A stretch of 64,000 bases of DNA. It comes from Eggerthellaceae bacterium (GTDB lineage Bacteria > Actinomycetota > Coriobacteriia > Coriobacteriales > Eggerthellaceae). The position numbers were made by a program, and so were the translations under genes. Positions within the stretch are counted from its first letter, which is position 1, and each line of letters starts with the position of its first letter. The stretch covers positions 2,363 through 66,362 of the forward strand of contig CAVIKF010000008.1 in assembly GCA_963643505.1 (NCBI GenBank), read 5' to 3'. Below, in pieces: positions 2,230-36,238 of this stretch. The notes below the pieces were generated by a model, which worked only from the letters and a program-made list of their open reading frames with translations, was not told where the DNA came from and ran no database searches.

Positions 2230-2237
2230 CCGAAAAA

Positions 2238-2297
2238 CCTGACAGGTGCCTGGTGCCTGTCAGGTATTGTCATGTGACAGGTGTCAGGTGCCTGTCA
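2238..2297. repeat. Two adjacent copies of a palindromic GACAGG-N9/10-CCTGTC element (REP-like, possible terminator) just after the stop of the first gene
   Basis: CCTGACAGG (2238-2246) pairs with CCTGTCAGG (2256-2264). TGACAGG (2275-2281) pairs with CCTGTCA (2291-2297). The core GACAGGTGCCTGGTGCCTGTC is the near-exact reverse complement of the core at 18771-18797. It is flanked by CGAAAAA runs, with no clean T-tract. Confidence 0.7.
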
Positions 2298-2411
2298 GGT
2301 TCGAAAAAATCGAGAAGTCGTTTTCGACCATCGTTTGTCTTTTAAACTATACTGGGATTCCAATAATTTTATTAAAGAATAATGCGAATCTACGGGGTGG
2401 GGACGTTGACG

Positions 2412-5273: not shown

Positions 5274-5274
5274 G

Positions 5275-5404
5275 CGGTGGATTGACCATAAAAGCTGCGG
5301 GCTAGCCGAGCGACGGGCTAGCCATGAAAACGGTGGGTTGACCAAGAAAGCGGCGGGCTAGCCATGAAAACGGTGGGTTGACCAAGAAAGCGGCGGGCTA
5401 GCCA
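5275..5404. repeat. 40-nt tandem direct repeat (about 3.2 copies) in the leader of the 3113-aa gene
   Basis: GGGCTAGCCATGAAAACGGTGGGTTGACCAAGAAAGCGGC occurs at 5315-5354 and identically at 5355-5394. A partial third copy lies at 5395-5404, and a degenerate copy upstream reads GGTGGATTGACCATAAAAGCTGCGGGCTAGCC (5275-5307). Confidence 0.9.
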
Positions 5405-5497
5405 CAAGATCCAACATGCAAGACACGGGGCTTCGGCACCCGAGCTGCGGCTAACCGAGCTGTGGCCTAGCCGCAAGAGAAAGAGAGAAGGGAAAAC

Positions 5498-18770: not shown

Positions 18771-18797
18771 TGTGACAGGCACCTGGCACCTGTCACA
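18771..18797. repeat. Palindromic GACAGG-N9-CCTGTC element, inverted copy of the one at 2238-2297
   Basis: TGTGACAGG CACCTGGCA CCTGTCACA lies 14 nt after the stop at 18757. The core GACAGGCACCTGGCACCTGTC differs from the reverse complement of the 2241-2261 core only at the central base. Confidence 0.75.
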
Positions 18798-18800
18798 AGA

Positions 18801-18914: not shown

Positions 18915-19850
18915 ATGCAATCCAACCCTGCAAGCAGCACGGTGCGCGGCATCAGCATCGCCACGATCATTCTGAGCGCCATCGGAATTGCGCTGTCGGT
19001 TCTTTCCCTTGCAAGCATGTCGGTGATCAGGTCCTATGTCTATGACCACGCGGACGAGATCTCCAACATGACCATGGCCGCGATGGAACAAAGCTCGTCT
19101 TCATCGATTACCATCAACGAGCACAATATCAACGTGAGCGACTTGGCTTTGGCCCTCGAAAAGCAAGGAGACGCCGATATCGCTGTTGCAGCTGAGTTTA
19201 TCGATGACCTCTCCAAGGGCAAGCTCACGTCGGCTTTTGATCTTTTGTCCTCCACCGACACAGAAAACATCGTTGCGGCAAAGCGCAAGTTTGCTGCGAT
19301 GACTGATGAACAGATGCTCAAATTGGCTACGGCTGTGCCCGGTGCGACCTCTACCGATATGATTGCCCTGCGTGATGAGGTGGCTGGTATTGATGACGCC
19401 GATCTTGTCGAGATGTGCAACCTCCTCAAGTCCACCACGCCAGAAGAGATGATCTCTGAGACCGTCGAGTTTGGCGTGATATTAATCACCTATTTTGTCG
19501 TTGCCGGTCTCATCTCCGAGTTGATTACCCTCATCGCGGCCATCTTGGCCTTGCGCAACGCTGAGAAGCCAGGCAAGCTCAAGGCGGCCTTCGTCATGTG
19601 CATCATCGGCGCTGTCGCGGCGTTGATGATGGTTTCTATTGTCCGTCTCGTCCTCATGATCGTCGATGCCGTCTATATCCAAAAGGTTCGCCGGACCCCT
19701 ACGGTGCCCCCTGTCTATCCTCAAGGCCCAGGACAGGGCATGCCGGCGGGTTGGCAACAAAATATGCCTCAGGGCGTGCCCGCAAACGGTATGGCTAACG
19801 GCGCGGCTAACCCGAACCAAGCCGCCCCTTACCCTGACGCGCTGAAGTAG
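18915..19850 (+). CDS. Hypothetical membrane protein (1 N-terminal + 2 C-terminal TM segments, Pro/Gln-rich tail)
   Basis: The ORF spans 18900-19850. I prefer ATG 18915 because AAAGGAG lies 5 nt upstream. TM-like stretches are ISIATIILSAIGIALSVLSLA, FGVILITYFVVAGLISELITLIAAILAL and AAFVMCIIGAVAALMMVSIVRLVLMIV. I recognise no family. Confidence 0.6.
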   Translation: MQSNPASSTVRGISIATIILSAIGIALSVLSLASMSVIRSYVYDHADEISNMTMAAMEQSSSSSITINEHNINVSDLALALEKQGDADIAVAAEFIDDLSKGKLTSAFDLLSSTDTENIVAAKRKFAAMTDEQMLKLATAVPGATSTDMIALRDEVAGIDDADLVEMCNLLKSTTPEEMISETVEFGVILITYFVVAGLISELITLIAAILALRNAEKPGKLKAAFVMCIIGAVAALMMVSIVRLVLMIVDAVYIQKVRRTPTVPPVYPQGPGQGMPAGWQQNMPQGVPANGMANGAANPNQAAPYPDALK

Positions 19851-20742: not shown

Positions 20743-22551
20743 TTGATGATTGACAAAGACCAAGAAGATAAGAGCGGGCAGAACGCGTCTCGCTTCGAAC
20801 AGGTGGGCACATTCCGTTCCGAGCAGGCGAACACGTCTCGCTTCGAACAGGCGAACGCGTCCCATGTTGAACAGGCGAGCGCGCGCCGCGACAGGACCGC
20901 ACGCAACGACCGCTCAGACCGAGGCGCCTCCAATCGCGACCGCTCCAAAGGCGGAGCCGCACGCAACGACCGCTCCGACCGCGACAGGACCGTACGCAAA
21001 GGCCGCTCAGACCGCGGTGTCCCCAAAGGTAGCGCGCGTTCCAAGCCTGCGTCGGTGAGTTTTACAGGGGAGGTTGGCCAAACGCGCGGGGTTATCGACC
21101 GCAACACCAAAAAGTCCAAGCCTCACAAGAAAAGCAAGCTTGAGCAATTAGTCGTCCAGTGGTGCAACCGTCTCCTCGATGTTGCACATGACCGTTCCTT
21201 CCATGAGCAGGAAGAGCAATATGAGGCAAATCGTACGACCCGCGACTTTTTGTGGAACAGCATAGGCATGTGCGCATGGGGCGTTGTTTTCCCCGTCCTT
21301 ACCATCGTCGTCACCCAACTTTCAGGTGCCACCAACGCAGGTATGTTCTCCATGGCTTTCGTCATAGCGAGCCTGCTTATGATTGTCGCGAATTTCGGTA
21401 TCCGTACGTTCCAGATCAGTGATGTAAATGAGGAGTTTTCTTTTGCGGACTATCGTATCAACCGCGTTATCACCTGCCTCGCCGCGATTGTCCTAGGTTT
21501 TCTCTATTGCAGCATACGCGGCTATGACGAGGCGATGGGCGTCATGTGTATGGGGCTTATCGTATACAAGGCAGTAGATGGGTGCGCCGATGTCTATGAA
21601 GGCCGTCTGCAACAGATGGACAAGATGTACCTTGCGGGCGTGAGCCAGACGCTACGCTCCCTGGTTGTCTTTGTCGTCTTTTGCATCGCCCTTGTTTTGA
21701 CGGGAAGTCTCCAAGTCGCGAGTGTTGTTATGGCGGTGTTTGCGGTATTGACCTTGGTGTTTATCTCGCTTCCGTTGGCGCACATGGAGACGCCGAAGTC
21801 CGAGCCGGTCAACATCAGACGCGTCATCGAGCTGTTCAAGAAAAGTTGGCCCCTGTTTGCGGCGTTTTTTATGTATGCGCTCATCGACAACATGCCGAAG
21901 TTCGTCATGGAAGGTGCGTTGACCTACGATAACCAACTGTTCTACAACGCGTTGTATTTTCCTGCGATGTTCGTCCTCATGTCTGCCCAAACGATCTATA
22001 AGCCCATGCTTGTGCGCATGGCTAACGTTTGGCATGACCCGTCGAAACGTCGTCGCTTCGACCTCATCATCTTGGCGGTCGTGGCCCTGATCGTCGGCAT
22101 TACGGCGGTTATGACCTTTGTGATGTTGTGGTTTGGCCTTGACCTCATGGCCTTCCTGTACGGTCTTGATTTCCGCCAATTCGAAAAGATCAGCATCATC
22201 ATGCTCATCGCCGGCGGCATCACGGCAGGCATCGACTTCATCTATCAGACGATCACGATTCTCCGCCGCCAAAAGGACGTCATGATGGCTTATGTCGTCG
22301 CATTGATCCTTGCGCTTTTCACGCCAATGCTGCTCATCGATTTTGCCCAGCTCGAAGGTGCGGTTTTAAGCTACCTAATCGTCATGGCTGTGTTGTTCAT
22401 CCTTATGCTTTGGATCTATATTCGCATTCGCTTTACTCGTGACGGCGGCTTGTCTGACCCCGCACCCAAGCCAGCCACGTCCAATGAGGAGCCCGAAGAG
22501 ATTCCTGTTGTTCATGGCCGAGTCGAGATCGAGGGCAAAGGCAAGGCGTAA
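20743..22551 (+). CDS. Polytopic membrane protein, Wzx/MOP-type oligosaccharide flippase-like, with ~150-aa repetitive charged N-terminal tail
   Basis: From residue ~165 I count roughly 12-14 hydrophobic segments, arranged like Polysacc_synt-family flippases. The N-terminus is low complexity (RFEQ...SEQANTSRFEQANASHVEQA; RNDRSDRGASNRDRSKGGAARNDRSDRDRTVRKGRSDRG), encoded by DNA repeats around 20790-21010. The true start may be internal. Confidence 0.5.
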   Translation: MMIDKDQEDKSGQNASRFEQVGTFRSEQANTSRFEQANASHVEQASARRDRTARNDRSDRGASNRDRSKGGAARNDRSDRDRTVRKGRSDRGVPKGSARSKPASVSFTGEVGQTRGVIDRNTKKSKPHKKSKLEQLVVQWCNRLLDVAHDRSFHEQEEQYEANRTTRDFLWNSIGMCAWGVVFPVLTIVVTQLSGATNAGMFSMAFVIASLLMIVANFGIRTFQISDVNEEFSFADYRINRVITCLAAIVLGFLYCSIRGYDEAMGVMCMGLIVYKAVDGCADVYEGRLQQMDKMYLAGVSQTLRSLVVFVVFCIALVLTGSLQVASVVMAVFAVLTLVFISLPLAHMETPKSEPVNIRRVIELFKKSWPLFAAFFMYALIDNMPKFVMEGALTYDNQLFYNALYFPAMFVLMSAQTIYKPMLVRMANVWHDPSKRRRFDLIILAVVALIVGITAVMTFVMLWFGLDLMAFLYGLDFRQFEKISIIMLIAGGITAGIDFIYQTITILRRQKDVMMAYVVALILALFTPMLLIDFAQLEGAVLSYLIVMAVLFILMLWIYIRIRFTRDGGLSDPAPKPATSNEEPEEIPVVHGRVEIEGKGKA

Positions 22552-25161: not shown

Positions 25162-25426
25162 CTGCACGGCGTCGCACGAAGTGGCGTTTGGCGGTTCGCG
25201 CATTGAAACCATTGCCCGGGAAATTACCAAATTCACAGCATTGGTAAACGGAGAACTCGGAGTTTGTATCGAAAAGCCCTTTTAGTAACAATGTGGCAGG
25301 TTATTCGCTTAAATCATACTAACTCATGTTAGCGTATGCAGGGGGGGTAACGGAAATGCTGAGGGACGTATGCCCGACGCATGATGGAGCTTCGGTGTGC
25401 TGACAACCGGATGGCCGGGAAGGTCG

Positions 25427-25488
25427 CCTAGAAGACGCCTTAGAATCAAAAACAGATTCTAGGAGGTTATACCCACGTTCGGCACGCT
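25427..25488 (+). repeat. Copy A of a ~62-nt paralogous intergenic element (partner at 36128-36189)
   Basis: GATTCTAGGAGGTTATACCCACGTTCGGCACGCT (25455-25488) matches GATTCTAGGCGATTGCACCAACGTTCGGCACACT (36156-36189) at 28 of 34 positions. The 28 nt upstream, starting CCTAG in both copies, match at 17 of 28 with identical spacing. The element contains the inverted repeat TAGAATC...GATTCTA. Confidence 0.7.
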
Positions 25489-25507
25489 ATTGAGGGGAGA
25501 TCCCCAT

Positions 25508-25873
25508 ATGAATGACCATATGAACGACCTGGGGCAATTTTACGACGCCGTCGGTGCGAATGCCGATGAGGTTATCGGTCGTTTGGGTGGCGATCCGACA
25601 TTGGCGATGCACTTTCTAGCAAAATTTCAGGAGGATAGCAGTTTCCGCGCACTTTGCGCCGCTTTGGATGGTGGCGACGTAGAAACTGCATTCCGTGCGG
25701 CGCACACGCTCAAGGGCGTTTGTGCGAACCTCGGTCTGCAAACGCTCTTTTCCAAGGCGTCAGATGTGACCGAGTTGCTTCGTGCCGGTGAGATGGAGAA
25801 CGCCAAACGTGCCCTGCCTGCCCTTGAGGCGGAGTACAACCACGTTTGCGTCCTGCTCGCAGGGCTGTGTTGA
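25508..25873 (+). CDS. Histidine phosphotransfer (HPt) domain protein
   Basis: The HPt signature is AFRAAHTLKGVCANLGL (HxLKG). It is a small all-helical protein. The ORF-track start is TTG 25490; I prefer ATG 25508 because GAGGGGAGA lies ~8 nt upstream. Confidence 0.8.
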   Translation: MNDHMNDLGQFYDAVGANADEVIGRLGGDPTLAMHFLAKFQEDSSFRALCAALDGGDVETAFRAAHTLKGVCANLGLQTLFSKASDVTELLRAGEMENAKRALPALEAEYNHVCVLLAGLC

Positions 25874-25918
25874 ACAAATCCGACATGCCGAAAAGACTAA
25901 ACCTGTAACGGAGGATAT

Positions 25919-27802
25919 ATGAACAATACGCTATCCAGTTACCTCGTGTGCTCAGCCCTCATGGTCATAATTATGGGTACTCTTGCGGTCCGCTCGTTTT
26001 CGGCGGTTTCGGATAGAAAAAGTCGCGTTCGTACGCAGTTCCTCATCGGTATGACAGCGCTGTACGTTATTGTCGACTTCGTTTTCATCGCCTGTCATCT
26101 TTCGGGGGGACTCACGGTAGATGCTTGGACGGTCGTTGCCTTCGTCTTTTATCTGGTCTACACCTTGCTACCGTTTGGGTGGCACTTATTTGTACGTAAC
26201 TTTGTTGGAAGCACATTCGGATTGATATTCCGCAGGTTGGAGTTGGTCCCGATCGTGGTTTTGCTCGGCATGGTCGTCGCAACGCCATTTACAGGCGCTC
26301 TATACTATTTCGATGACGCCGGTATGTACGCGAGAGGCCCTCTTTACGACGCCTACTCTATACTTAACTATTTCTACTATGCGGAGTGCATACTCGACCT
26401 ACTGATTATCCTCATACGTCAAAAGCAGGGGGACGAGCGCTACGCTTTTCGGACGATGTTGATCTCGCTCATCATGTTGGTTGGCGCGGTTGTCAACAGC
26501 TCGGTCCTCCCGGTAGGGACGATTCTCCCGTTCATGCCGTTTTGCTCGGTAGTGGTCACAATGTTTGCGTTCTATTTCATTGCGGCAAAAGACAGCGATT
26601 TGCTCAAGGAACGTCAGGAGAAGGCGATTCAGACGGCGCTGAAAGAGGCGCGGGAGGCGAATCAGGCGAAGACCATTTTCCTCTCCCGCGTGAGCCACGA
26701 TATCCGTACTCCTATGAATGCCATCATCAATCTGACGGAGTTGGCACGGCAGGAGAACGACCCCGCTCGCGTGCACGAGTATCTGAACAAGATGGCGGTC
26801 TCCGGTAAATTCCTGCTCGTTTTGATCAACGACATTTTGGATATGAGTCGTATCGAAAGCGGCGAGCTGACGCTTCACAGGGAAAGCCTGACCCGCTCTG
26901 AATTTCTCGCCACGGTGGAAACGATCATCTGCCCGCTGATGGAGGAAAAACATATCAACTTCCACAGCGAGTTGAACCCCGGGGAATACACCATTCTCGT
27001 GGACAAGATGCGTTTCAACCAGATATTCTTCAACCTGCTCGCCAACGCCGCAAAATTCACGCCGGAGGGCGGCGATGTCTGGTTTGAGGTTACGAATCTC
27101 GAGGCCGCGGACAACAGGCTCAAGATTAAATTCGTCGTGCGCGACAACGGTATCGGTATGAGCGAGGAATTCCAACAGCACTTGTTCGAGCCGTTTGCGC
27201 AGGAATCCTCTAAGCTCAACGAAAAGAAGCAGGGTACGGGTCTTGGTCTGTCCATCGTCAAAAACCTTGTGGACACGATAGGCGGCACAATCTCTGTCAA
27301 GAGCAAGCTAGGCGAGGGAACGGAATTCGTCGTCATGTTCGAAGTGGACATCCTCGCGCGGGAGGGCGCTTCTTCTTCTTCTTCTTCTTCTTCTGCCGTT
27401 TCCTCGTCGCTGGACGGGTTACGTGTTCTGTTGGTGGAGGACAATGAAACGAACACCTATGTGGCGAAGATTATCCTAGAAAAGGTCGGATGCGTCGTTA
27501 GCACGGCGGAGAACGGGCAGGAGGCAGTGGACGCCTTTTCTGCGAGCGAGCCGAACACATTCGACGCGATTCTGATGGATGTGCGTATGCCCGTGATGGA
27601 CGGGATTGAGGCGACAAAGGCCATCCGCGCTCTCGATCGCCCCGACGCTGCGAGCGTCGCAATCGTTGCCATGACCGCCGACACATTCGACGACGAGCGT
27701 AAAAATATGCTCGAAATCGGCATGAACTATCATCTGCCTAAACCCATTGACGCACAAATGCTTTATGAGATATTGCAAACCTGCTCTCACCGTCCAGATT
27801 GA
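25919..27802 (+). CDS. Hybrid sensor histidine kinase / response regulator (multi-TM sensor, HisKA, HATPase_c, REC)
   Basis: I count about 6-7 N-terminal TM segments. The H-box is FLSRVSHDIRTPMNAI. The N and G boxes are NLLANAAKFTPEGG, DNGIGM and GTGLGLSIV. The receiver reads LRVLLVEDNETN...DAILMDVRMPVMDG...AMTA. Confidence 0.9.
   Translation: MNNTLSSYLVCSALMVIIMGTLAVRSFSAVSDRKSRVRTQFLIGMTALYVIVDFVFIACHLSGGLTVDAWTVVAFVFYLVYTLLPFGWHLFVRNFVGSTFGLIFRRLELVPIVVLLGMVVATPFTGALYYFDDAGMYARGPLYDAYSILNYFYYAECILDLLIILIRQKQGDERYAFRTMLISLIMLVGAVVNSSVLPVGTILPFMPFCSVVVTMFAFYFIAAKDSDLLKERQEKAIQTALKEAREANQAKTIFLSRVSHDIRTPMNAIINLTELARQENDPARVHEYLNKMAVSGKFLLVLINDILDMSRIESGELTLHRESLTRSEFLATVETIICPLMEEKHINFHSELNPGEYTILVDKMRFNQIFFNLLANAAKFTPEGGDVWFEVTNLEAADNRLKIKFVVRDNGIGMSEEFQQHLFEPFAQESSKLNEKKQGTGLGLSIVKNLVDTIGGTISVKSKLGEGTEFVVMFEVDILAREGASSSSSSSSAVSSSLDGLRVLLVEDNETNTYVAKIILEKVGCVVSTAENGQEAVDAFSASEPNTFDAILMDVRMPVMDGIEATKAIRALDRPDAASVAIVAMTADTFDDERKNMLEIGMNYHLPKPIDAQMLYEILQTCSHRPD
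27371..27394 (+). repeat. (TCT)8 in-frame trinucleotide repeat (Ser8) in the kinase-receiver linker
   Basis: tcttcttcttcttcttcttcttct starts on a codon boundary (27371 - 25919 = 1452) and encodes ASSSSSSSSAVSSS. Confidence 0.95.
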
Positions 27803-27813
27803 GTGGATGAAAC

Positions 27814-29046
27814 ATGCAAACAGGTTTGACAGCAGGCTACTATGCAGAAATTGATATTCTGTGTGTGCTCATTTTGGGACTTTTGGCCGTCAAGACGATA
27901 GGCTCTAGTTTTATCAGTGAGCAAAAGCGGAGTTATACCGTTGTGTTGCTGTGTCACATTGTTTTTGCCATAAGTGATCTGGTCTGGATATTCAACAACG
28001 GTTTTCTTCCGCTTTTGGGGGTTTTCCCGAAATACGGGGTCGCCCTCAGTTATCTGGCCAACTCTCTGAACGTGATTGCTTCCGGTGTGACCGGGTTTGC
28101 ATGGCTGGCTTTTTCAGAGATCATTCAGAAGCACAACATCTTGAAGGATCGGAAAAAGTTGGCACTGTATTTGTTGCCGCTCGTTATCCTTGTGCTTTTG
28201 ACCGCAACGACATGGTTCACGCACATCATGTTTTCCGTTTCCGAACAGGGCGAGTTTTCCCGCGGCGTAGGCTATGTCATACAGGTGATCGTATCCATGG
28301 GATACATTGTTCTTGCAACGGTTCGTTCTTTGCGACGCACGAGGCAAAAAATCACCATGAAAGAGCGACAAGAGGCACGCGCTGTTGCGGCGTTTATTAA
28401 GCTGCCGCTTTGTGGCATTTTGTTGCAGCTGTTGTTCCCTGAGATGCAGATGTTGTTTCTTGGCACCGTTGCGGCGTTGGTGGAGGTTTTCATCGCCCTT
28501 CAGCATACGCAGGTGCTTATAGACCCGCTTACGGGCCTGAACAACCGTATGATCCTTGACCAAAAGGCAGAGGAGGCCATCCGTGCTTGGAACGGTGAGC
28601 AGGAGGAGTTGTATCTGTTGCTCATCGATGCGAATGACTTTAAGCAAATCAACGACAAATACGGTCATGTGACCGGAGACCTTGTATTGAAGATGATAGC
28701 CGGCGTGCTTCAAAAGCTTTGTGGTGACAAGGACTACCTATGTCGTTACGGTGGTGATGAGTTCGTAGTTTTGCTTCATATGCCGAGCGGTGAGGGTTGC
28801 ACGCAGATCGCTCATAGGATTGATGAGGACCTCGCGGCCCTCGATGCTCCGTGTCGGATATCCGTTTCTGTGGGTGCTTGTCGATACACACCGGATATAG
28901 AGGGCTTGGAAGAGTTCATTAAAAGAGCGGATGAGGATATGTACCGCATAAAAGCCGCTAAGAAGTCGGCCGCTAAGAAGTCGGCTGACATGCGCGAAAA
29001 GGATAATGGCGAAAGAGACGCAAGCAAAAAGATAGATAGAAGGTAG
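27814..29046 (+). CDS. Membrane-bound diguanylate cyclase (multi-TM N-terminus + GGDEF domain)
   Basis: The N-terminal half is hydrophobic (~6 TM segments). GGDEF-domain motifs are DPLTGLNNR, LLLIDANDFKQINDKYGHVTGD and RYGGDEFVVLL. No RxxD I-site is seen 5 residues upstream of GGDEF (the sequence there is GDKDYLC). Confidence 0.9.
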   Translation: MQTGLTAGYYAEIDILCVLILGLLAVKTIGSSFISEQKRSYTVVLLCHIVFAISDLVWIFNNGFLPLLGVFPKYGVALSYLANSLNVIASGVTGFAWLAFSEIIQKHNILKDRKKLALYLLPLVILVLLTATTWFTHIMFSVSEQGEFSRGVGYVIQVIVSMGYIVLATVRSLRRTRQKITMKERQEARAVAAFIKLPLCGILLQLLFPEMQMLFLGTVAALVEVFIALQHTQVLIDPLTGLNNRMILDQKAEEAIRAWNGEQEELYLLLIDANDFKQINDKYGHVTGDLVLKMIAGVLQKLCGDKDYLCRYGGDEFVVLLHMPSGEGCTQIAHRIDEDLAALDAPCRISVSVGACRYTPDIEGLEEFIKRADEDMYRIKAAKKSAAKKSADMREKDNGERDASKKIDRR

Positions 29047-29077
29047 ATGGCAAAACTTCCCTGAGAGGACGAATGAT

Positions 29078-30574
29078 TTGGAAAAAAGCAGAATCCTGAT
29101 TGCTGATGACGCTGAACTGAATCGTGAGATGCTCAGCCAAATGTTGGGCGAGCAGTATGACTTTGCATACGCTTGCAACGGCGTGGAGGCTGTAGAGCTG
29201 CTCGGTAGCGGCGCATCGATTGACCTTGTCCTGTTGGACGTGAATATGCCGGAGATGGACGGCTTTGAAGTGTTGCGCGTTATGAACGAGCGGCACTGGA
29301 TCGAGGAGTTTCCCGTCATCATCATCTCAGCGGAACACGGGGTAGATTTCATCACGCAGGCCTATCAGCTCGGTGCGGTGGACTATATCAGTCGTCCTTT
29401 CCATGCTGTCGTGGTGCAACGACGAGTGGAAAACACCCTGCTCGTGTACTCCAACCAAAAACGGCTGATTCGCCTGGTCGGAAACCAGGTGTACGAGCGG
29501 GAAAATGTTAACAACGCGATGATCAACATATTCAGCAACATCATCGAGCTGCGTAACCACGAATCCGGCAGCCATACGCTAAACGTGCAGACAATCACCG
29601 ATTTGTTGCTGCATAGGCTGATCGAGCTGACGGACCGCTACGGGCTGACAAAGGCGGACATTTCCCTCATCTCGTCGTTGTCCGCGCTACACGACATCGG
29701 CAAGATCAAGATCCCCGAGGAAATCCTTAACAAGCCGGGCAAGCTTACCGCCGAGGAACAGGCTCTGATGAAAACCCACACCATCGAGGGCGACCGTATC
29801 TTGAGTAACTCCGAATTGGATCAGAGCAGCCAGTTCGTCCGCACGGCGCGTGACATATGCCGTTGGCACCACGAGAAGTATGATGGAGGCGGCTATCCTG
29901 ACGGTTTGGTGGGCGACGATATCCCCATCTCCGCGCAGGTTGTGTCGATGGCGGACATCTACGACGCATTGACCAGCGAGCGGTGCTACAAGTCAGCCAT
30001 CCCGCATGAGAGGGCGATGGAGATGCTCACCGGTGGCGAGTGCGGTGCGTTCAACCCCCTGTTGTTGCAATGCCTGACCGACGTCTCCGCCTCGCTCAAG
30101 GAGCTTAAGGAAAGCAGCGGGCGCTACGACTACCAAAGCAGCGCGGCCTACGTCGCGGACGAGCTTCTCGCGGATGATAGTTTGCCGCAGGATAATGCGC
30201 TGCGTCGCATGCTTGACAACGAGCGCATGAAGAAGGACTTCTTTATGGGTTGCAGCGGCGGTGTTCTTTTCGAGTATGACCGGCCCTTGCACAAGGTCAC
30301 CTTCATCAATCAATTGGGAGACAATGCGGGAAAGCGCAGGGTGATCTATGCCTCGCGAGACGGCGTGGACAAGATTATGCCCGTGGAGCATTGGAACGAA
30401 CTGAAGGAGAAGTTGCAACACACCACGCATGATGAGCCGGACATCACAACGGATGTCGTTCTCCAATTGGACGGGGATCGCCGCTCTTACCGCGCCAAGG
30501 CGATGGCGATTTGGCCCGAGCGTGGCACGGAGTATATCAGCGTGGTGGGGCAGCTCCTGCCAACCTCAATGTAG
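29078..30574 (+). CDS. Response regulator with HD-GYP c-di-GMP phosphodiesterase domain and an extra ~150-aa C-terminal domain
   Basis: The start is TTG. The REC domain reads RILIADDAELNRE...DLVLLDVNMPEMDG...SAE. The HD-GYP domain reads HESGSHTLNV...ALHDIGKIKIPEEILNKPGKLT...HHEKYDGGGYPDGL...MADIYDALTSERCYK. I do not recognise residues ~345-498. Confidence 0.88.
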   Translation: MEKSRILIADDAELNREMLSQMLGEQYDFAYACNGVEAVELLGSGASIDLVLLDVNMPEMDGFEVLRVMNERHWIEEFPVIIISAEHGVDFITQAYQLGAVDYISRPFHAVVVQRRVENTLLVYSNQKRLIRLVGNQVYERENVNNAMINIFSNIIELRNHESGSHTLNVQTITDLLLHRLIELTDRYGLTKADISLISSLSALHDIGKIKIPEEILNKPGKLTAEEQALMKTHTIEGDRILSNSELDQSSQFVRTARDICRWHHEKYDGGGYPDGLVGDDIPISAQVVSMADIYDALTSERCYKSAIPHERAMEMLTGGECGAFNPLLLQCLTDVSASLKELKESSGRYDYQSSAAYVADELLADDSLPQDNALRRMLDNERMKKDFFMGCSGGVLFEYDRPLHKVTFINQLGDNAGKRRVIYASRDGVDKIMPVEHWNELKEKLQHTTHDEPDITTDVVLQLDGDRRSYRAKAMAIWPERGTEYISVVGQLLPTSM

Positions 30575-30621
30575 AAACGCCAACATAACGCAGCAAAGTG
30601 AAAGGGAACGCACCGAGGCGA

Positions 30622-30656
30622 AAGCAGTCAAAATCCGCAAAGGGAAGCAGTCAAAA
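30622..30656 (+). promoter_or_regulatory. Direct repeat AAGCAGTCAAAA x2 (23-nt period) upstream of the lipoprotein gene; candidate operator
   Basis: Perfect 12-mers lie at 30622-30633 and 30645-30656. The second ends 22 nt before ATG 30679. Confidence 0.35.
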
Positions 30657-30678
30657 CTCGTAGAGAGGAGAAAGCAGA

Positions 30679-32514
30679 ATGAAACGACGGAGAAGAATCG
30701 CACTACTATTGGTAATGGCATGCGTCGCATTTCTGCTGATTGGCTGCAGCGGGAATACGACGGAGAACGGGTCCGCCAAAACGGGCGAACACGAGCCGAT
30801 TACCATCATGGATGCGCAACGGGATTACACCAAGTTGATCGAGCTTGTGCACGAGAAATATCCCGAGATCAATATCGAGGTCGTCCCCTACCGAGGACGC
30901 AACATGTCGGCGTATTGCAAACAACAGCTTGAAACGGGGATCATGCCCGACATCTACTCCACCACGCAGGCTTGGGACGCCGATCTGCAAAAGGAAAACC
31001 TCATCGACCTTAGCCAGTATGCTGTCTGCGAGCTTTACAACACGGCGCGGTTGGAGGAATGCGTTGTGGACGGCGGTGTGTATTTGCTGCCTTTTGACTA
31101 CAGCATCACAGGGTTCTTGTGCAACAAGTCCTTGCTTGAGCGCAACGGCATCGCTATTCCGACGAGCTTCGCGCAAATGCGTGATGAAACGGCTCCCGCG
31201 CTGCAAGAAAAGGGCATCAAGGTTGCTGATTGCCTGTTGGATTTGCCGGGTTCTGCGTTCAACTACTTCTTCAACGTCAATGCCAGCAAATACATGAACA
31301 CCGTTTCCGGCAGACAGTGGCGGGCCGCGTTCACCGATATGGACAACGATACGTGGGCTAGCGGCAATAAGAAGATGTCGGAGTGTTTGGATTATTTCCA
31401 ACAGTGGATCGACTGCGGCTTGATTGTCAACGACGAGCGCAGCGGAGAATACTCTTCATGCTTGAATGACTTTACCAGTGGCAACGCGGCCTTCCTGGTC
31501 GGTACGGTAAAGCGGTTCACGCAAAATGACGACGGCACGGGTGACCAGTATGTGCTGATGCCTTGGCTTTCCGAGAACGGGGAGGACAATACCTATATCA
31601 CGAGTCCGTCGCGTTTTTACGGTTTGAGCAAGGAGTTGGCGGAGAAAGGCAACGAGCAGAAGTTGGAGGATGCCCTGCATGTGCTCGAGGTGCTCTCCAC
31701 TAACGAGGGTTACCTCGCCATCAACGGTGAAGATTCCACCAACATGTGCTCTATCAAGGATTTTGAGGTTGCTGAGGATTCGCCCTATGCCGAGGCGATA
31801 AAGCAGGTGAGTCTCGGTCATGCGATGAGTCTGATCTACACCGGTTGGGACAGCTACCTCGTTCCCTTCGGTGAGGCGACGGTGAGTTGGATCAGCGGCG
31901 AGAGTACCGGTGATGCGGCACTTGCCGCGCTCGATGAGGCGAAGCGTTCCGTGCAAGGGCAGGGCGGCGCCACCGTCTACGCCACGGTGACAGAGGAGTT
32001 GGATACCGTGCAGGCTGCCCAGTTGAGCGGGCAGATGTTCATGGAGGCGACCGGCGCGGATGCTGCGCTCATCTCCTACAACGTCTATAATCCCGAGATC
32101 CACGCCCTGATGGAAAACAGCCTCGGTGCGAATGGCCATATCCTGCCGGGCAAGATGACCGAGGAATACATCACCGTCTTCTTGCCTACCGGATGGTATG
32201 ACACGTTGGTGACGATAAAGCGGACCGGCAGCGAGATTGAGGAGATGGCCAAGGCGGGCGCGGACACGCGTGGCACAGGCTACAAGTACCCCTATGTGTT
32301 CATGACGGCCAACGGTCAGCCTCTTGAGGCCGACAAGACCTACACCGTGGTGGTGTGCGGATACAACAAGGATGAGAAGGAGACGCTCGGACTTACGGAT
32401 ACCGGTATCGTGGGTCTCGATGCTGCCAAGAAGTACCTGCAGAAAGCGGGCGAGGTGTCCGCGGCGACGCTGGACGAGTCGCTCGTGAAGTTCGTGGGTA
32501 CGGCAGCAAAGTAG
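30679..32514 (+). CDS. Lipoprotein: extracellular solute-binding-protein-like domain fused to a C-terminal domain resembling 5'-nucleotidase_C
   Basis: The lipobox is LLLVMACVAFLLIG-C. The N-terminal ~400 aa have SBP family-1-like features (ITIMDAQRDYTKLIELVHEKYPEINIEVV...). The C-terminal ~190 aa (ATVYATVTEELDTVQAAQ...ADAALISYNVYNPE...TIKRTGSEIEEM...) resemble the substrate-binding domain of 5'-nucleotidases; that part of the call is tentative. Confidence 0.6.
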   Translation: MKRRRRIALLLVMACVAFLLIGCSGNTTENGSAKTGEHEPITIMDAQRDYTKLIELVHEKYPEINIEVVPYRGRNMSAYCKQQLETGIMPDIYSTTQAWDADLQKENLIDLSQYAVCELYNTARLEECVVDGGVYLLPFDYSITGFLCNKSLLERNGIAIPTSFAQMRDETAPALQEKGIKVADCLLDLPGSAFNYFFNVNASKYMNTVSGRQWRAAFTDMDNDTWASGNKKMSECLDYFQQWIDCGLIVNDERSGEYSSCLNDFTSGNAAFLVGTVKRFTQNDDGTGDQYVLMPWLSENGEDNTYITSPSRFYGLSKELAEKGNEQKLEDALHVLEVLSTNEGYLAINGEDSTNMCSIKDFEVAEDSPYAEAIKQVSLGHAMSLIYTGWDSYLVPFGEATVSWISGESTGDAALAALDEAKRSVQGQGGATVYATVTEELDTVQAAQLSGQMFMEATGADAALISYNVYNPEIHALMENSLGANGHILPGKMTEEYITVFLPTGWYDTLVTIKRTGSEIEEMAKAGADTRGTGYKYPYVFMTANGQPLEADKTYTVVVCGYNKDEKETLGLTDTGIVGLDAAKKYLQKAGEVSAATLDESLVKFVGTAAK

Positions 32515-32645
32515 GATTGTACGGAAAGCGGCGTTTTCGGGTCGGGAAGGGCCCGCAGGCGCCGCAGCACGATTGTGCCGCACTGCCGGGAAGTACGAGT
32601 CTGTTGGCATCGCAACACGGTAGGATTGCACACGATAGGATTGCA
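32512..32645 (+). promoter_or_regulatory. Three copies of TAGGATTG(C/T)A in the leader of the second kinase gene
   Basis: TAGGATTGTA lies at 32512-32521 and overlaps the stop of the lipoprotein gene. TAGGATTGCA lies at 32621-30 and 32636-45. The last copy abuts ATG 32645. Confidence 0.35.
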
Positions 32646-35260
32646 TGGAACAAAAGCTGGAAAAATCTGTCTCTCGACGGCGATGGCTCATCCCCGCATT
32701 GGTTGTCGCCTTGATTGCCACGCTGTGCATCGCAGGAGTGTTTCTCTATCGCTATGCCTTTGAGCAGCTGCATGAGGAGTCCGTTTCCCAGCTCGAGGAG
32801 CTAAGCCAACAACTCTTTGAGAAGCTTGACGTTCAAATTGAAAACCAGTGGTCCTACCTAGAAAAACTAAGGGCTTCGCTTGCGGAGATGGGCGACATGA
32901 CGCGGGATGAGTTGGCGGAGCAGCTTGCGCATGGCGAGGAGGACTTCGGTCCATACGGAAAGCAGATCTACTTCCGTGCAATTGATGAGGACGGCTATTA
33001 CTACACAAATACCGGCAGACAGGGGTTTTGGTCGGGGCTCGACCGATTGTCCGGAGCGGAGCGGCAATGCTTCACGATTGCCGACTGGTTGGACAATGAA
33101 AGCTATATGGTGTTCGCCGTCAAGGTGACGGAGACGTTGGAGGTGGACGGTCACAGGATAGAGTATTTGGTTCTTCTGCGCTCCATGATGGATATGCAAC
33201 CGTATTTCCGCTCCAGCGCTTTCGGGAACCAAAACATGGTCTATATCATCAACTACGAAGGTTTCGTCATGGCATCGGACGGCGATTTGCCGGAAATCGA
33301 CTTTGAGGGAAATAACGTTTTTTACCGCATGAAGGAGCAGACTTATCCCCACATGGACGGTTTTGATGCCGTGTTGGAACGGGGAAACACGTCCGGGACA
33401 GTCTGCACTGATGTGATCATCGGAGGGAAGAAATACTATCTGGTCTACGACCGCTTGCCTAACTATGACTGGTCGGTGTTTTTGTTGATGTCCGGCGAGG
33501 ATGTGGCCGTCAGTGCGACCGAGATGGTTAACTCGATGTTGCGGGTGTTTCTTCTGCTTGCCGGCGTGCTCGTGGCGGCGGGGACGGCAATCTTTGCTTT
33601 TGTCCTGCGTATCCAAAGAGATAAGAGGTTGATGGCGGTTAGGGAGCAAAGCGAGAAGGCACTTCAAGAGGCGAATAGGGAGCTCCAAAAACTGCAGGAT
33701 GAAACGGATAAGGCACGTCTCGCCGCGGAAAAGGCGACCACGGCAAAGAGCCAGTTCCTTGCCAATATGTCCCACGATATTCGTACGCCGATGAACGCCA
33801 TCATGGGTGTGACGCATCTGATGGAGCACGAGACGGATAATCCCGCGCGATTGCGCTACTACATCAGGAAGCTCCAATCCTCCGGTCGGCATATGCTGGG
33901 CCTGATCAATGATATTTTGGATATGAGCAAAATTGAGACAGGCGAGGTGCAGCTTAATTGCGAACCTATCAAGTTGGCGGAACAGGTGGGGCAAGTCGAG
34001 AGCATCATCCGTCCCCAGAGCAATGAGAAGGGGCAGGCGCTCACGATTCGCGTTTATGAGGTGACACACGAATACCTGATAGGCGACAGTATCCGAATCC
34101 GCCAGATATTCCTGAATCTTTTGACAAATGCGGTGAAGTATACGCCAAGCGGCGGCTCGATCCTCTTTGAGATCAGGGAGTTGCCTTGTGAGGAGCCAAA
34201 CTGCGCCACGTTGCGCACTTCTGTCATCGACAATGGCCACGGTATGTCGGCAGACTTTTTGACACACATTTTCGAGCCGTTCACTCGCGAAACGAGCACC
34301 CTTACCAACAAGGTGCAGGGCACGGGTCTTGGCATGAGCATCACCAAGAGCCTAGTGGATTTGATGGGTGGAACCATCGCGGTGGAAAGTGAGTTGGAGA
34401 AGGGCAGCCACTTCGATGTGACGTTGACGCTTCCTATCGACACGGAGGCGATGCGTGCTCCTCATATCCAAAGCGTACTTCTGATTGCTGACGAGAAGAC
34501 GTTGGTGACGAACGTGAAGGCCTCGCTGCGTGAGACCTCCGTGGGGTTGCGCGTCGCCGCTTCATTGGACGAGGCGATAGCGTTGCTTCGCGAGGAACCG
34601 GCGGATGCAATTCTTTTGTCCGGTTATCTTGCCACAGAGGGGTTGGCGGACACGGTGCGTCTGTTGCGTTCTGCAGCGCGTGGCGAGGTGTTGGTATTCT
34701 GTTGCGACTATGCGCACAGGGCGAGCGTGCGCGACGTGCTGATCGACAGCGACGTAGACGGACTGATTGCGCGCCCGTTCTTCTTTGAGAACTTGGTGCT
34801 CGCGGTTAAACATTCGCGCGAAGAGGGAACGAGTTCCGAACGCGAGGGACGTTTATCCGCATTGAACGGGAGACGTTTCCTTTGCGCCGAGGACAACGCG
34901 CTCAACGCCGAGATCCTTGAGGCGATGCTTGCCTTACACGGTGCTTCCTGCACGATTTATCCGGACGGCGCGGCGCTTGTGGATGCTTTTGCCTCGGTGA
35001 AGCCGGGGGATTACGACGCGATTCTGATGGATATGCAGATGCCGAACATGAACGGTGTGGAGGCGACGCGCGTTCTCCGCAGCGGAGAGAATCCGCTCGG
35101 CAAGACGATCCCCATCATTGCCATGACCGCCAACGCTTTTATTTCGGATGTGGAGGAGTGTCTTGATGCGGGCATGGATGCGCATCTGGCAAAGCCGCTT
35201 GACATCAACGCGATGGAGCGTGTCTTGCAAGAGCTTTTGGGCGGAAGTGTTGCGGAGTAG
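32645..35260 (+). CDS. Hybrid sensor histidine kinase (extracytoplasmic Cache-like domain, HisKA, HATPase_c, degenerate receiver, canonical receiver)
   Basis: TM1 is LIPALVVALIATLCIAGVFL. A ~270-aa extracytoplasmic region follows, then TM2 (VFLLLAGVLVAAGTAIFAFVL) and a coiled coil. The H-box is FLANMSHDIRTPMNAI, and the G-box is GTGLGMSI. The first receiver-like region lacks the acceptor Asp context (DAILLSGYL). The second receiver is canonical (RFLCAEDNALN...DAILMDMQMPNMNG...AMTA). Confidence 0.9.
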   Translation: MEQKLEKSVSRRRWLIPALVVALIATLCIAGVFLYRYAFEQLHEESVSQLEELSQQLFEKLDVQIENQWSYLEKLRASLAEMGDMTRDELAEQLAHGEEDFGPYGKQIYFRAIDEDGYYYTNTGRQGFWSGLDRLSGAERQCFTIADWLDNESYMVFAVKVTETLEVDGHRIEYLVLLRSMMDMQPYFRSSAFGNQNMVYIINYEGFVMASDGDLPEIDFEGNNVFYRMKEQTYPHMDGFDAVLERGNTSGTVCTDVIIGGKKYYLVYDRLPNYDWSVFLLMSGEDVAVSATEMVNSMLRVFLLLAGVLVAAGTAIFAFVLRIQRDKRLMAVREQSEKALQEANRELQKLQDETDKARLAAEKATTAKSQFLANMSHDIRTPMNAIMGVTHLMEHETDNPARLRYYIRKLQSSGRHMLGLINDILDMSKIETGEVQLNCEPIKLAEQVGQVESIIRPQSNEKGQALTIRVYEVTHEYLIGDSIRIRQIFLNLLTNAVKYTPSGGSILFEIRELPCEEPNCATLRTSVIDNGHGMSADFLTHIFEPFTRETSTLTNKVQGTGLGMSITKSLVDLMGGTIAVESELEKGSHFDVTLTLPIDTEAMRAPHIQSVLLIADEKTLVTNVKASLRETSVGLRVAASLDEAIALLREEPADAILLSGYLATEGLADTVRLLRSAARGEVLVFCCDYAHRASVRDVLIDSDVDGLIARPFFFENLVLAVKHSREEGTSSEREGRLSALNGRRFLCAEDNALNAEILEAMLALHGASCTIYPDGAALVDAFASVKPGDYDAILMDMQMPNMNGVEATRVLRSGENPLGKTIPIIAMTANAFISDVEECLDAGMDAHLAKPLDINAMERVLQELLGGSVAE

Positions 35261-35314
35261 TGGGGACCCTTGTTCAGGGTGCTAGACTAGTGTCATGCTC
35301 GAGAAAGGAATGAC

Positions 35315-35860
35315 ATGAAGCTTGTCATAGCATCCGATATCCATGGCTCCGCGGCGGCCGCCCACCAATTGGTTGAGCGCATCGAGGAGCTCCAACCTGA
35401 TCGCCTTGTCTTTTTGGGGGACCTGTTGTATCACGGCCCGCGAAATGATTTGCCGACAGAGTATGACACGAAGGCGGTCTATGAGCTGATTGGTGCGTTG
35501 CCGTATCCCAAGACGGCGGTGCGTGGCAATTGCGATGCCGAGGTTGACCAATGGATGTTCGATTTCGATATCCTTGCGGACTACCGACAAATCGAGGTCG
35601 ATGGGCGCGTGTTCGCCATGACCCATGGTCACCTGTATGGTCAGGGGGTCTTGCCTCCTGGGTGCGAGGATGCGGCGGTGCTCATGAACGGCCACACCCA
35701 CGTTAAGGTTCTCGAGCGCAAAGATGGGCTTGTCTTGCTCAACCCGGGTTCCACGTCGATTCCGAAGGATGGGTTGGCGAGCTACGCCACGTACGACAAC
35801 GGTGTCTTCGCTTTGCGTGCGCTTGACGGCGGCGAGGTCGTCAAGGAGTTGGCGATATAG
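35315..35860 (+). CDS. yfcE: YfcE-family metallophosphoesterase
   Basis: The calcineurin-like motifs appear in order: ASDIHGS, FLGDLLYHGPRN, VRGNCD, MTHGH, NGHTH and LNPGS. At 181 aa the length is typical of YfcE/MJ0936-type phosphodiesterases. Confidence 0.8.
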   Translation: MKLVIASDIHGSAAAAHQLVERIEELQPDRLVFLGDLLYHGPRNDLPTEYDTKAVYELIGALPYPKTAVRGNCDAEVDQWMFDFDILADYRQIEVDGRVFAMTHGHLYGQGVLPPGCEDAAVLMNGHTHVKVLERKDGLVLLNPGSTSIPKDGLASYATYDNGVFALRALDGGEVVKELAI

Positions 35861-35900
35861 GAGCCGCGTCTGCCGTTTTGGGGCTTGGGGGTGTCGCTGG

Positions 35901-35988
35901 GACTACGTCCGACAACCCCATGACGAATTGGCTACGTTGGCAGCCCGCACTGGAGAGCGGCGAGGTTGTCAAGGAGTTGGCTGCGTAA
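35901..35988 (+). pseudogene. Decayed duplicate of the last ~25 codons of yfcE, with its own stop codon
   Basis: GCGGCGAGGTTGTCAAGGAGTTGGC (35957-35981) matches 35829-35853 at 24 of 25 positions. In frame it reads ...SGEVVKELAA-stop, against ...GGEVVKELAI-stop for the intact gene. Weaker similarity extends upstream (CTACG..CGACAAC). Confidence 0.7.
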
Positions 35989-36075
35989 GATATTGCGATA
36001 GGTGTCTAGCGTGCTTCCGCCCAAATTGACTCAAACGAGCTTATGTGGGCGTAATCGATTGCGCAAAGGGAGGGC

Positions 36076-36094
36076 TATACCCCTAGGGGGTATA
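36076..36094. repeat. 19-nt perfect palindrome TATACCCC-TAG-GGGGTATA
   Basis: Read directly from the sequence. It lies between convergent genes and has no T-tract. Confidence 0.8.
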
Positions 36095-36127
36095 ACTTGT
36101 GCTTGCGAATTAGACGTGAATCGGTAC

Positions 36128-36189
36128 CCTAGGAAATGGGTTAGAAAGGCAAGCGGATTCTAGGCGATTGCACCAACGTTCGGCACACT
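36128..36189 (+). repeat. Copy B of the ~62-nt paralogous intergenic element (partner at 25427-25488)
   Basis: The alignment is given under copy A. Both copies have the same orientation and lie 10,701 nt apart. Confidence 0.7.
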
Positions 36190-36238
36190 GCCAGCTATGC
36201 GCTAGTTTTAGCGCTTGCATCAGGGAAGCACTACCAAA

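Follow-up and report, generated by a model that had tools for sequence, protein, structure and literature searches.

Two repeats around a signalling block

Within a 64,000-nucleotide stretch of an Eggerthellaceae genome (the window), a signalling block that begins with an HPt gene is bracketed by two similar sequences, and the question raised by this locus is what these sequences are and whether they delimit the block. The first-pass annotation had reported a 62-nt element at 25427-25488 and again at 36128-36189, on one strand and 10,701 nt apart. These positions were borne out, and our recount agreed with the reported match between the copies of 45/62 (17/28 plus 28/34, zero indels). The repeat pair is genuine and its chance expectation is none: a 31-nt degenerate core pattern gave these two matches only and 0 in 100 shuffles.

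Several details of the description required revision. The repeat itself stood, but its length did not, as the right end of each copy (L, left; R, right) lies 3-4 nt further on (Table 1). An inverted repeat is present in both copies, with TTAGAA(T)...(A)TTCTAG as the conserved form, whereas CCTAGAA, the first box, complements it in L only. Similarly, the count of two copies holds for the window but not for the genome, where a third copy was found on contig C17 (18868-18932) and further fragments of the same element on contigs C2, C4 and C28. The exact core ACGTTCGGCAC, searched genome-wide, gave three extra matches, all in unrelated contexts.

Table 1. Coordinates of the two repeats, which are, with high confidence, right ends of an insertion sequence (IS) of the IS256 family, and of neighbouring features
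Feature	Position in window	Strand	Basis or remark
Relic L, 3'-terminal ~143 nt of IS256-family IS	25349..25491	+	IS positions ~1313-1451 of 1455
L: transposase gene remnant, last ~27 codons and TAG stop (25429-25431)	25349..25431	+	Translations, DNA alignment
L: subterminal hairpin/palindrome of IS right end, CTTAGAATC-N7-GATTCTAGG	25439..25463	+	Alignment pairing, MFE fold
L: right terminal inverted repeat (IRR) and IS terminus (...ACGTTCGGCACGCTATT)	25462..25491	+	IRL/IRR pair of G005, exact termini of G094
GAGGGGAG ribosome-binding site and HPt ATG (25508)	25492..25510	+	Sequence; Pfam Hpt match
Decayed yfcE 3'-end duplicate, not IS	35905..35988	+	Direct repeats; tblastn match 35947-35982
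Perfect palindrome TATACCCC-TAG-GGGGTATA	36076..36094	+	Terminator-like, just upstream of R
Relic R, last ~66 nt of same IS family	36127..36192	+	IS positions ~1389-1455; nhmmer; covariance model
R: stop TAG	36130-36132		
R: hairpin arms	36141-36146, 36156-36164		
R: IRR	36163-36192		

Origin of the repeats in an IS256-family element

We conclude with high confidence that each copy is the decayed right end, standing alone, of an IS that belongs to the IS256 family and measures ~1455 bp when intact. The family prototype, IS256, comes from Staphylococcus/Enterococcus, and the transposase is of the Mutator-type DDE class. Another Eggerthellaceae genome (G094) carries four 100%-identical, intact 1455-bp copies, each flanked by a perfect 8-bp duplication of the target (AGCGCAGC, AAGCGTGA, TTGAATAT and GACAGCAA), and the right ends of these copies align with the window element. 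The encoded transposase scored 326.9 bits on NF033543 ("IS256 family transposase", cutoff 150); its ORF stops at nt 1395, and the final 60 nt together with the stop codon match the 62-nt element. In a further genome (G005), a homologue of the element lies directly 3' of an IS256-family transposase gene (PF00872, E 1.1e-93), and this right end has its inverted-repeat partner, 26 nt long, 1.4 kb upstream (IRL/IRR arms at 117-142 and 1536-1561 of its locus, 85% complementary). More distant IS copies showed IR-only matches at both ends. As a result, a 1455-bp IS256-family element, apparently active in Eggerthellaceae, is now defined with exact ends and 8-bp duplications.

A profile was built from three full IS copies and run against the window's own genome. 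With nhmmer, L matched this profile at IS positions 1313-1451 (E 3.3e-14) and R at positions 1389-1452 (E 3.9e-8); R additionally scored 79.2 bits with the covariance model. Local alignments of L to the IS copies gave 70-74% identity over 92-122 nt, and R is 77-79% identical over 66 nt to the intact copies of G094 and G005 (82-86% was also obtained), as against 68% to L over the same 66 nt (68-73% between L and R overall, the upper figure being 45/62). The transposase C-terminal codons in L are in frame with the TAG, the remnant reading ...RRMMELRCADNRMAGKVA and the G005 copy ...ARRIIDVVIADNPIGRKAA. The window had been described as free of integrase and transposase, which is correct in that no intact transposase gene is present but overlooks the last ~27 codons and stop that L retains.

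The element has a fixed order, from the transposase stop (TAG in "CCTAG") through a subterminal TTAGAAT/ATTCTAG hairpin to a ~30-nt terminal inverted repeat, and a six-sequence alignment of right ends had a mean column identity of 81%. A covariance-model survey of 151 Eggerthellaceae genomes detected it in only 8, either at the ends of IS copies or as relics of 53-305 nt truncated at varying points. In keeping with the IS256 family, the intact relatives share one transposase of ~425 aa with matches to NF033543 and PF00872, the 1455-bp length, imperfect ~26-30-nt terminal inverted repeats and 8-bp target duplications, whereas the window has truncated right ends only (143 and 66 nt), without transposase and without a left end. 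The palindrome between stop codon and IRR is a conserved trait of this IS subgroup and, to our knowledge, no described feature of IS256 proper. It is probably part of the region recognized by the transposase, because the GCCTAGAATC motif also occurs inside the IS left end.

Relics elsewhere in the genome and in related species

No intact transposase of this IS was found in the window's genome, and within the window the full-IS profile detected no left-end or transposase homology beyond the C-terminal codons of L. Elsewhere in the genome, the same profile matched a left-end fragment on C28 (IS positions 1-427, E 2.5e-43) and, more weakly, left ends on C2 and C4. Besides right ends, the relics thus comprise a lone left end, a mini-element of 70 nt (IRL+IRR; C4:143326-143395) and a copy of ~600 nt with an internal deletion (C28:1266-1862). 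The right end on C17 was matched only weakly by the full-IS profile (E 0.23) but clearly by element-only models (E 1e-5; 72.9 bits with the covariance model); it ends 45 nt before a co-oriented SBP-hybrid-kinase (phosphorelay) operon. L, R and the C17 relic have all lost their left ends and target duplications. In their variable length, with one or both termini kept and the body lost, these remnants resemble solo IS ends and MITE-like derivatives; unlike the latter, they give no sign of amplification, being few, each diverged, and none with a recent target duplication. The family is extinct in this genome, where relics alone remain.

A genome of the same genus (G002) carries the same signalling block and, at the same site before HPt, a more decayed L relic, whose identity to L, 59%, falls below the 81-88% of the neighbouring spacer and coding sequence. 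Taking the orthologous L and C17 relics together, identity between the two genomes is 58-59%, against 79-88% for adjacent spacers and coding sequence. Directly left of L, the genomes differ by a 7.9-kb indel. The G002 contig stops ~180 nt past kinase 2, so that the comparison covers the block and L, short of the R junction. In another genome (G001), too divergent for this comparison, the flanking gene is represented just by a 35%-identical paralogue.

Possible regulatory use of the relics

The retention of L and C17 relics at orthologous sites in G002 would fit a scenario in which IS ends were exapted and kept as promoter, operator or 5' leader of the phosphorelay operons that follow them (HPt for L, the SBP-hybrid kinase for C17). 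The terminus of L directly abuts the HPt ribosome-binding site and leaves 16 nt to the ATG, and the C17 relic lies 45 nt from its co-oriented operon; homologues of kinase 1 and of the 1375-aa kinase on C17 are adjacent in another organism. A precedent is documented for the two-component operon walKR, where IS256 has inserted upstream, at -59 in one case, with a potential hybrid promoter (PMC6702299). The L relic is likewise directly upstream of a two-component/phosphorelay operon, but a consensus scan revealed no sigma-70-like promoter facing outward from either L or C17. The relics are moreover far less conserved in G002 (58-59%) than the spacers just downstream of them (79-81%), and their hairpin arms are mostly lost there. 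R, for its part, points toward a convergent gene from that gene's 3' side and lies downstream of the terminator-like palindrome. Finally, four of eight relics lie upstream of a co-oriented gene, which is about what chance predicts (~50%, a rough estimate for random intergenic insertion). We therefore consider such exaptation unlikely. A more specific version, in which the L and C17 relics serve as promoter/operator modules shared by two phosphorelay operons of horizontal origin and subject both to one common control, would, if true, account for the persistence of the relics at orthologous positions in the two species; it appears improbable as well.

Two further readings of the motifs were rejected. 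Sigma-54, ECF and sigma-70 promoter assignments of the ACGTTCGGCAC core had inconsistent spacing by eye and no outward promoter in consensus scans; the core proved to be the IS terminal repeat. A response-regulator operator made of direct repeats (CCTAGAA/TTAGAA boxes) was dropped, since the boxes fall on the stop codon of the transposase and on the subterminal motif of the IS.

Evaluation of the block as a mobile unit

The enclosed genes had been described as AT-richer than the rest of the window, and the block had been proposed to be acquired or exchanged as a unit. The spot counts behind the first statement (26, 32 and 38 G+C) are exact, and the block is indeed AT-richer than the window flanks (58.6% and 61.0% GC), but not conspicuously so relative to the genome (block 54.1%, genome 56.2%): it falls at the 12th percentile of the genome's 10.6-kb windows, 0.9 SD under the mean. 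The zone of reduced GC extends from ~21 kb to ~43 kb, without an edge at either copy. The unusual part is the window flanks, which are GC-rich, rather than the block.

An IS-based form of the proposal would be a composite transposon or IS-flanked island, in which two IS256-family copies in the same direction moved the HPt...yfcE segment and were later deleted down to their right ends; Tn4001 is an example of an IS256-flanked composite transposon. The shared orientation of L and R fits the IS-cargo-IS geometry. HPt and kinase 1 have homologues with 63-69% amino acid identity in low-GC MAGs assigned to other phyla, indicating that these genes travel, and the 7.9-kb indel beside L also accords with movement. 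A duplicated yfcE 3' end, whose existence was confirmed (35947-35981 is 86% identical to 35819-35853), records a recombination event near R. This duplicate, however, sits between the intact yfcE and R, which places R outside any segment recombined in via yfcE. In addition, the intact IS copies of other genera come closer to R than L does, and a right-hand IS body would overlap the present coding sequence of kinase 2 and yfcE. The ordinary GC of the block and the extension of the lower-GC zone well past both copies argue in the same direction, as do the presence of L and the block in the congener and of a third relic at an unrelated locus; an empty site was found in no genome compared. Although the IS family is common to this locus and Tn4001-type composites, the latter have complete flanking IS copies and a unit-level target duplication, whereas only right ends are found here, with no left-end relic in the window. 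Taken together, a composite transposon is distinctly unlikely, and the idea that the segment between the copies was acquired in one piece is not supported. The repeats therefore give no ground for annotating the signalling block as a bounded mobile island.

Structured RNA and att-site readings

The copies had alternatively been suggested to be members of a family of structured RNAs or operators. In the RNA version, the 62-nt unit would itself be a functional small RNA or riboswitch-like leader. A 7-bp hairpin is possible in 97.6% of cells across six sequences, and L folds better than its shuffles (z = -2.2). The other three sequences folded, R, C17 and an intact IS end, do no better than shuffles (z +1.15, +0.41 and +0.46), and the six-sequence alignment contains no pair changed on both sides. 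Rfam gave no match in the window at the gathering threshold or around the copies at E <= 1, apart from a chance lncRNA (E 0.83). The unit always maps to an IS end, and the sister species has not kept the hairpin in its orthologous relics. The structured-RNA reading is thus largely refuted and highly improbable, and an operator family finds no support either. The suggestion of recombination scars or att-like sites was right insofar as the copies are scars of mobile DNA, namely IS256-family right ends, but not as regards att-like or block-bounding sites: attL/attR repeats of an island integrated by site-specific recombination, to which direct repeats in one orientation ~10.7 kb apart would conform, are exceedingly improbable given 73% identity without the identical core typical of att sites, no integrase among the block ORFs or nearby, no tRNA/tmRNA target in the whole window (Rfam) and the ordinary GC, and are ruled out by the IS-terminus identity. 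Accordingly, the repeats are not worth pursuing as a new RNA or att site.

Proposed history of the insertions

Under the preferred reading of L and R as decayed IS256-family right ends, their shared strand and similar sequence are attributable to common descent from one IS family rather than to the delimitation of a unit, and the two insertions are old and probably separate. The remaining ends place one IS256-family insertion upstream of HPt, at a distance of 16 nt from the start codon, one at 36.2 kb where the yfcE-like gene and a 1614-aa gene converge at their 3' ends, and a third upstream of the second phosphorelay operon, on C17. The IS bodies would later have been lost by deletion while the remaining ends drifted, and the L and C17 insertions would predate the split from G002.

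L and R are most likely non-functional relics today. With the HPt ribosome-binding site abutting the IS terminus, L necessarily belongs to the 5' portion of the HPt operon, to whose promoter it may or may not contribute. That an IS once landed upstream at only 16 nt from the lead gene of a c-di-GMP/phosphorelay operon is in any case relevant to mapping the operon's promoter.

Two of the three relics, L and C17, are located directly upstream of co-oriented phosphorelay operons, a placement that might point to a function still in use or to a common history.

Identity of the repeated element

Two same-strand copies of a 62-nt element, reported by the first-pass annotation at 25427-25488 (L) and 36128-36189 (R), 10,701 nt apart, flank a block of signalling genes (HPt, kinases 1 and 2, ending in yfcE). 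Recounting reproduced these positions, the identity of 45/62 without indels (17/28 and 28/34 in its two parts) and the spot G+C counts. The repeat is real, because a degenerate 31-nt core pattern matched only the two copies in the window and nothing in 100 dinucleotide-preserving shuffles. Using an nhmmer profile of L and R on the genome contigs (2.07 Mb, 31 contigs; the window is C8:2363-66362), we identified a third copy of the same polarity at C17:18866-18928 (E 1e-5). It terminates 45 nt 5′ of the ATG that starts a lipoprotein/SBP_bac_3 gene, downstream of which lie two hybrid histidine kinases.

A degenerate pattern from the three copies, searched in 60 relatives, matched one further genome (G005), where the element lies immediately 3′ of an IS256-family transposase gene (PF00872, E 1e-93) whose stop codon is contained in the element's opening bases, C(C/T)TAG. 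There, a sequence 1.4 kb upstream, ahead of the transposase start, is 85% complementary to the element's last 26 nt, and the two make up an inverted repeat with arms at 117-142 and 1536-1561. A protein search of 151 genomes of the Eggerthellaceae, the family to which the closest public relative assigns the window's genome, found the transposase in 38. Another genome, G094, carries four insertion sequence (IS) copies of 1455 bp, 100% identical and each bordered by a perfect 8-bp target duplication (AGCGCAGC, AAGCGTGA, TTGAATAT, GACAGCAA); these duplications set the exact termini, GATCGTGTGCC... and ...GGCACACTACC. The G094 transposase ORF spans nt 118 to nt 1395 of the copy and scores 326.9 bits against NF033543, "IS256 family transposase" (cutoff 150). 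Intact, recently active copies occur in other genera. L, R and the C17 copy align with the final 66 nt of the copies in G094, G005 and a third genome, G127, at 81% mean column identity, which identifies the 62-nt element as the right, non-coding end of an insertion sequence of the IS256 family. This end consists, in order, of the transposase stop codon, a TTAGAAT-N9-ATTCTAG subterminal palindrome and the terminal inverted repeat, and the IS terminus proper falls at 25491 and 36192, 3 nt to the right of the copies as first delimited. The palindrome probably belongs to the signals that the IS itself uses for end recognition or expression, since a GCCTAGAATC motif sits within the left end too.

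Relics in the genome and its relatives

Three complete IS copies were made into a profile for a search of the whole genome; the relics that it found are listed below. The copies in the window are truncated and diverged. L, read in the frame of its TAG, translates as ...RRMMELRCADNRMAGKVA-stop, and the G005 copy as ...ARRIIDVVIADNPIGRKAA-stop. On C28, the left 427 nt, including a transposase N-terminus (52% aa identity), are joined to the right end in an internally deleted copy of ~600 nt. The 70-nt mini-element on C4, made out from the left-end match and an adjacent match to the right terminal repeat, comprises only the left and right terminal inverted repeats (GATCGTGTCCCTAATGTTGACGTAGAGGTCG...TTTGCACCAACGCTCGACACACTACC) and is MITE-like or an extreme internal deletion of the IS; the sequences that flank it, GAGGACGA and GAGGGCAC, may represent an 8-bp duplication that has decayed. 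No intact transposase was found in the assembly by tblastn, the C28 N-terminal fragment being the sole match; the family is therefore extinct in this genome or hidden in assembly gaps, leaving relics only.

Positions of IS relics (with matching IS positions and E-values) and of other features
Feature	Position	IS positions	E-value
L	window 25349-25489	1313-1451	3e-14
R	window 36128-36191	1389-1452	4e-8
C17 right end	C17:18868-18930	1389-1451	0.23
C28 left-end fragment	C28:1266-1694	1-427	2.5e-43
C28 weak right end	C28:1764-1862	1377-1453	0.4
C28 internally deleted copy	C28:1266-1862		
C2 solo left end	C2:68322-68359 (elsewhere to 68361)	3-40	0.018
C4 left-end match	C4:143326-143361	1-36	0.075
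C4 mini-element (outside window)	C4:143326-143395		
TPM gene-relic interval	window 25162-25348; L037 (G002:C11) 1385-9300		
HPt and 7TM hybrid kinase	window 25508-27802		
yfcE 3′-end duplicate	window 35905-35988		
Perfect palindrome	window 36076-36094		
Second phosphorelay operon	C17:18960-26160 (locus L102 6962-14162)		
Stretch past kinase 2 in G002	L037 (G002:C11) 19316-19496		
TGACAGGTGCCTGGTGCCTGTCA-type elements	window 2236-2301 and 18773-18800		
Tandem repeats	window 5272-5408		
Repeats at ORF start	window 20781-21026		

Of 151 Eggerthellaceae genomes searched with a covariance model, only 8 contained the 66-nt end. The surveyed occurrences were ends of IS copies or relics of 53, 80, 94, at least 206 and 305 nt, cut at various points; this fits random decay and not a discrete functional unit. 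The congeneric sister species (G002, contig CAZOGL010000011, locus L037) has the same block from HPt to kinase 2 at ~84-87% nucleotide identity, with a more decayed relic at L's site that terminates at the HPt ribosome-binding site, so the L insertion is older than the species split. The C17 relic, likewise common to the sister species at the orthologous site, is ancient. Between the two genomes, identity is 58-59% in the relics versus 79-81% in the short spacers before the start codons and 80-88% in the first codons, and in G002 little is left of the hairpin arms. We propose that the IS would have inserted at these loci in separate events, that its bodies would have been lost through deletion and that the leftover ends would be drifting neutrally.

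Alternative explanations

There is a small probability that the relics were exapted or share a history with the signalling genes. Two of the three copies in this genome precede phosphorelay operons, and in a low-GC MAG a kinase 1 homologue (69%) adjoins a homologue (70%) of the 1375-aa kinase of C17; these two observations speak for such a reading. IS256 insertions upstream of the walKR operon, with a potential hybrid promoter, provide a documented analogue (PMC6702299). However, 4 of 8 relics examined precede a co-oriented gene, about chance level by our own rough estimate. Consensus scans of L and C17 detected no sigma-70-like promoter facing outward, and R lies downstream of a terminator-like perfect palindrome, facing the 3′ end of a convergent gene.

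Several results argue against acquisition or exchange of the block as a unit between the copies, and an origin as a composite transposon is unlikely. The block is indeed AT-richer than the outer parts of the window, but these are unusually GC-rich (58.6% and 61.0%); its own GC is ordinary for the genome (54.1% vs 56.2%, 0.9 SD under the mean, 12th percentile of 1,797 overlapping 10.6-kb windows), and the lower-GC zone, from ~21 kb to ~43 kb, extends far past both copies. Nor are L and R paired by identity: over the 66-nt end, R matches the intact copies of G094 and G005 at 77-79% but L at only 68%, and L matches the intact copies at 68-71%, values that fit independent decay from the IS consensus rather than a matched pair. 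G002 carries the block with the more decayed relic at L's site, the left flank varies between the two genomes, and the antiquity of the C17 relic also tells against such an origin. The yfcE 3′ end was confirmed to have a decayed duplicate (35947-35981 vs 35819-35853, 86%); if a segment was recombined in via yfcE, the position of this remnant between intact yfcE and R would place R outside it. On the R side, comparison is limited by the G002 contig, which stops ~180 nt past kinase 2, and by another genome, G001, whose sole counterpart to the neighbouring gene is a 35% paralogue; this leaves the composite transposon a small probability. The supposed att-like scars are mobile-element relics of a known kind, neither island boundaries nor a new RNA: the observation is real and its explanation ordinary.

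The suggested structured RNA or operator family found no support in Rfam (no match for the element), in the covariation test (no pair changed on both sides, an outcome indistinguishable from shuffles; the 7-bp hairpin is pairable in 97.6% of cells) or in folding, where only L was better than shuffles (z -2.2; R +1.15, C17 +0.41, intact IS end +0.46). The low identity of the relics between the two genomes and the loss of most of the hairpin arms in G002 likewise count against it.

Neighbouring genes and other repeats

Between the TPM gene, the left neighbour of L, and the relic, G002 has an extra 7.9 kb with a LysR regulator, a Na+/H+ antiporter-family protein, a nucleotidyltransferase, an ATPase_2/DUF234 protein and a DUF4418 protein; this interval is an indel hotspot beside an old IS insertion. 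The ~150 nt past the kinase 2 stop in G002, after which its contig ends, are absent from the window and include a duplicated GCCCGGGACGTGCGACGGGCTTG unit. No yfcE homologue was detected at the nucleotide level in G002, an 85%-complete assembly.

Homologues of HPt and the 7TM hybrid kinase, with 63-69% aa identity, lie at three loci (L038, L039, L040), on contigs from MAGs of low GC (43-51%) that are labelled Spirochaetaceae, Anaerovoracaceae and Sphaerochaetaceae; in L039 and L040 the gene that follows is homologous (70% and 50%) to the 1375-aa hybrid kinase of C17. This arrangement suggests that the phosphorelay genes were horizontally transferred and rearranged, or that the MAGs are mis-binned. 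The C17 operon encodes an SBP_bac_3 lipoprotein, a 740-aa hybrid kinase and the 1375-aa hybrid kinase with two receiver domains, and is directly followed by a DmsABC-like molybdopterin oxidoreductase operon.

The yfcE duplicate lies 45 nt past the intact gene and is followed by the perfect palindrome, which has an 8-bp stem (TATACCCC-TAG-GGGGTATA). Near-identical palindromic TGACAGGTGCCTGGTGCCTGTCA-type elements, 93-96% complementary, stand at either end of a region with three giant secreted-protein genes. The tandem repeats have 20-nt units (AAGCGG[TC]GGG[CT]T[AG][GA]CCA...), and units of 24-48 nt are repeated at the start of a 602-aa ORF.
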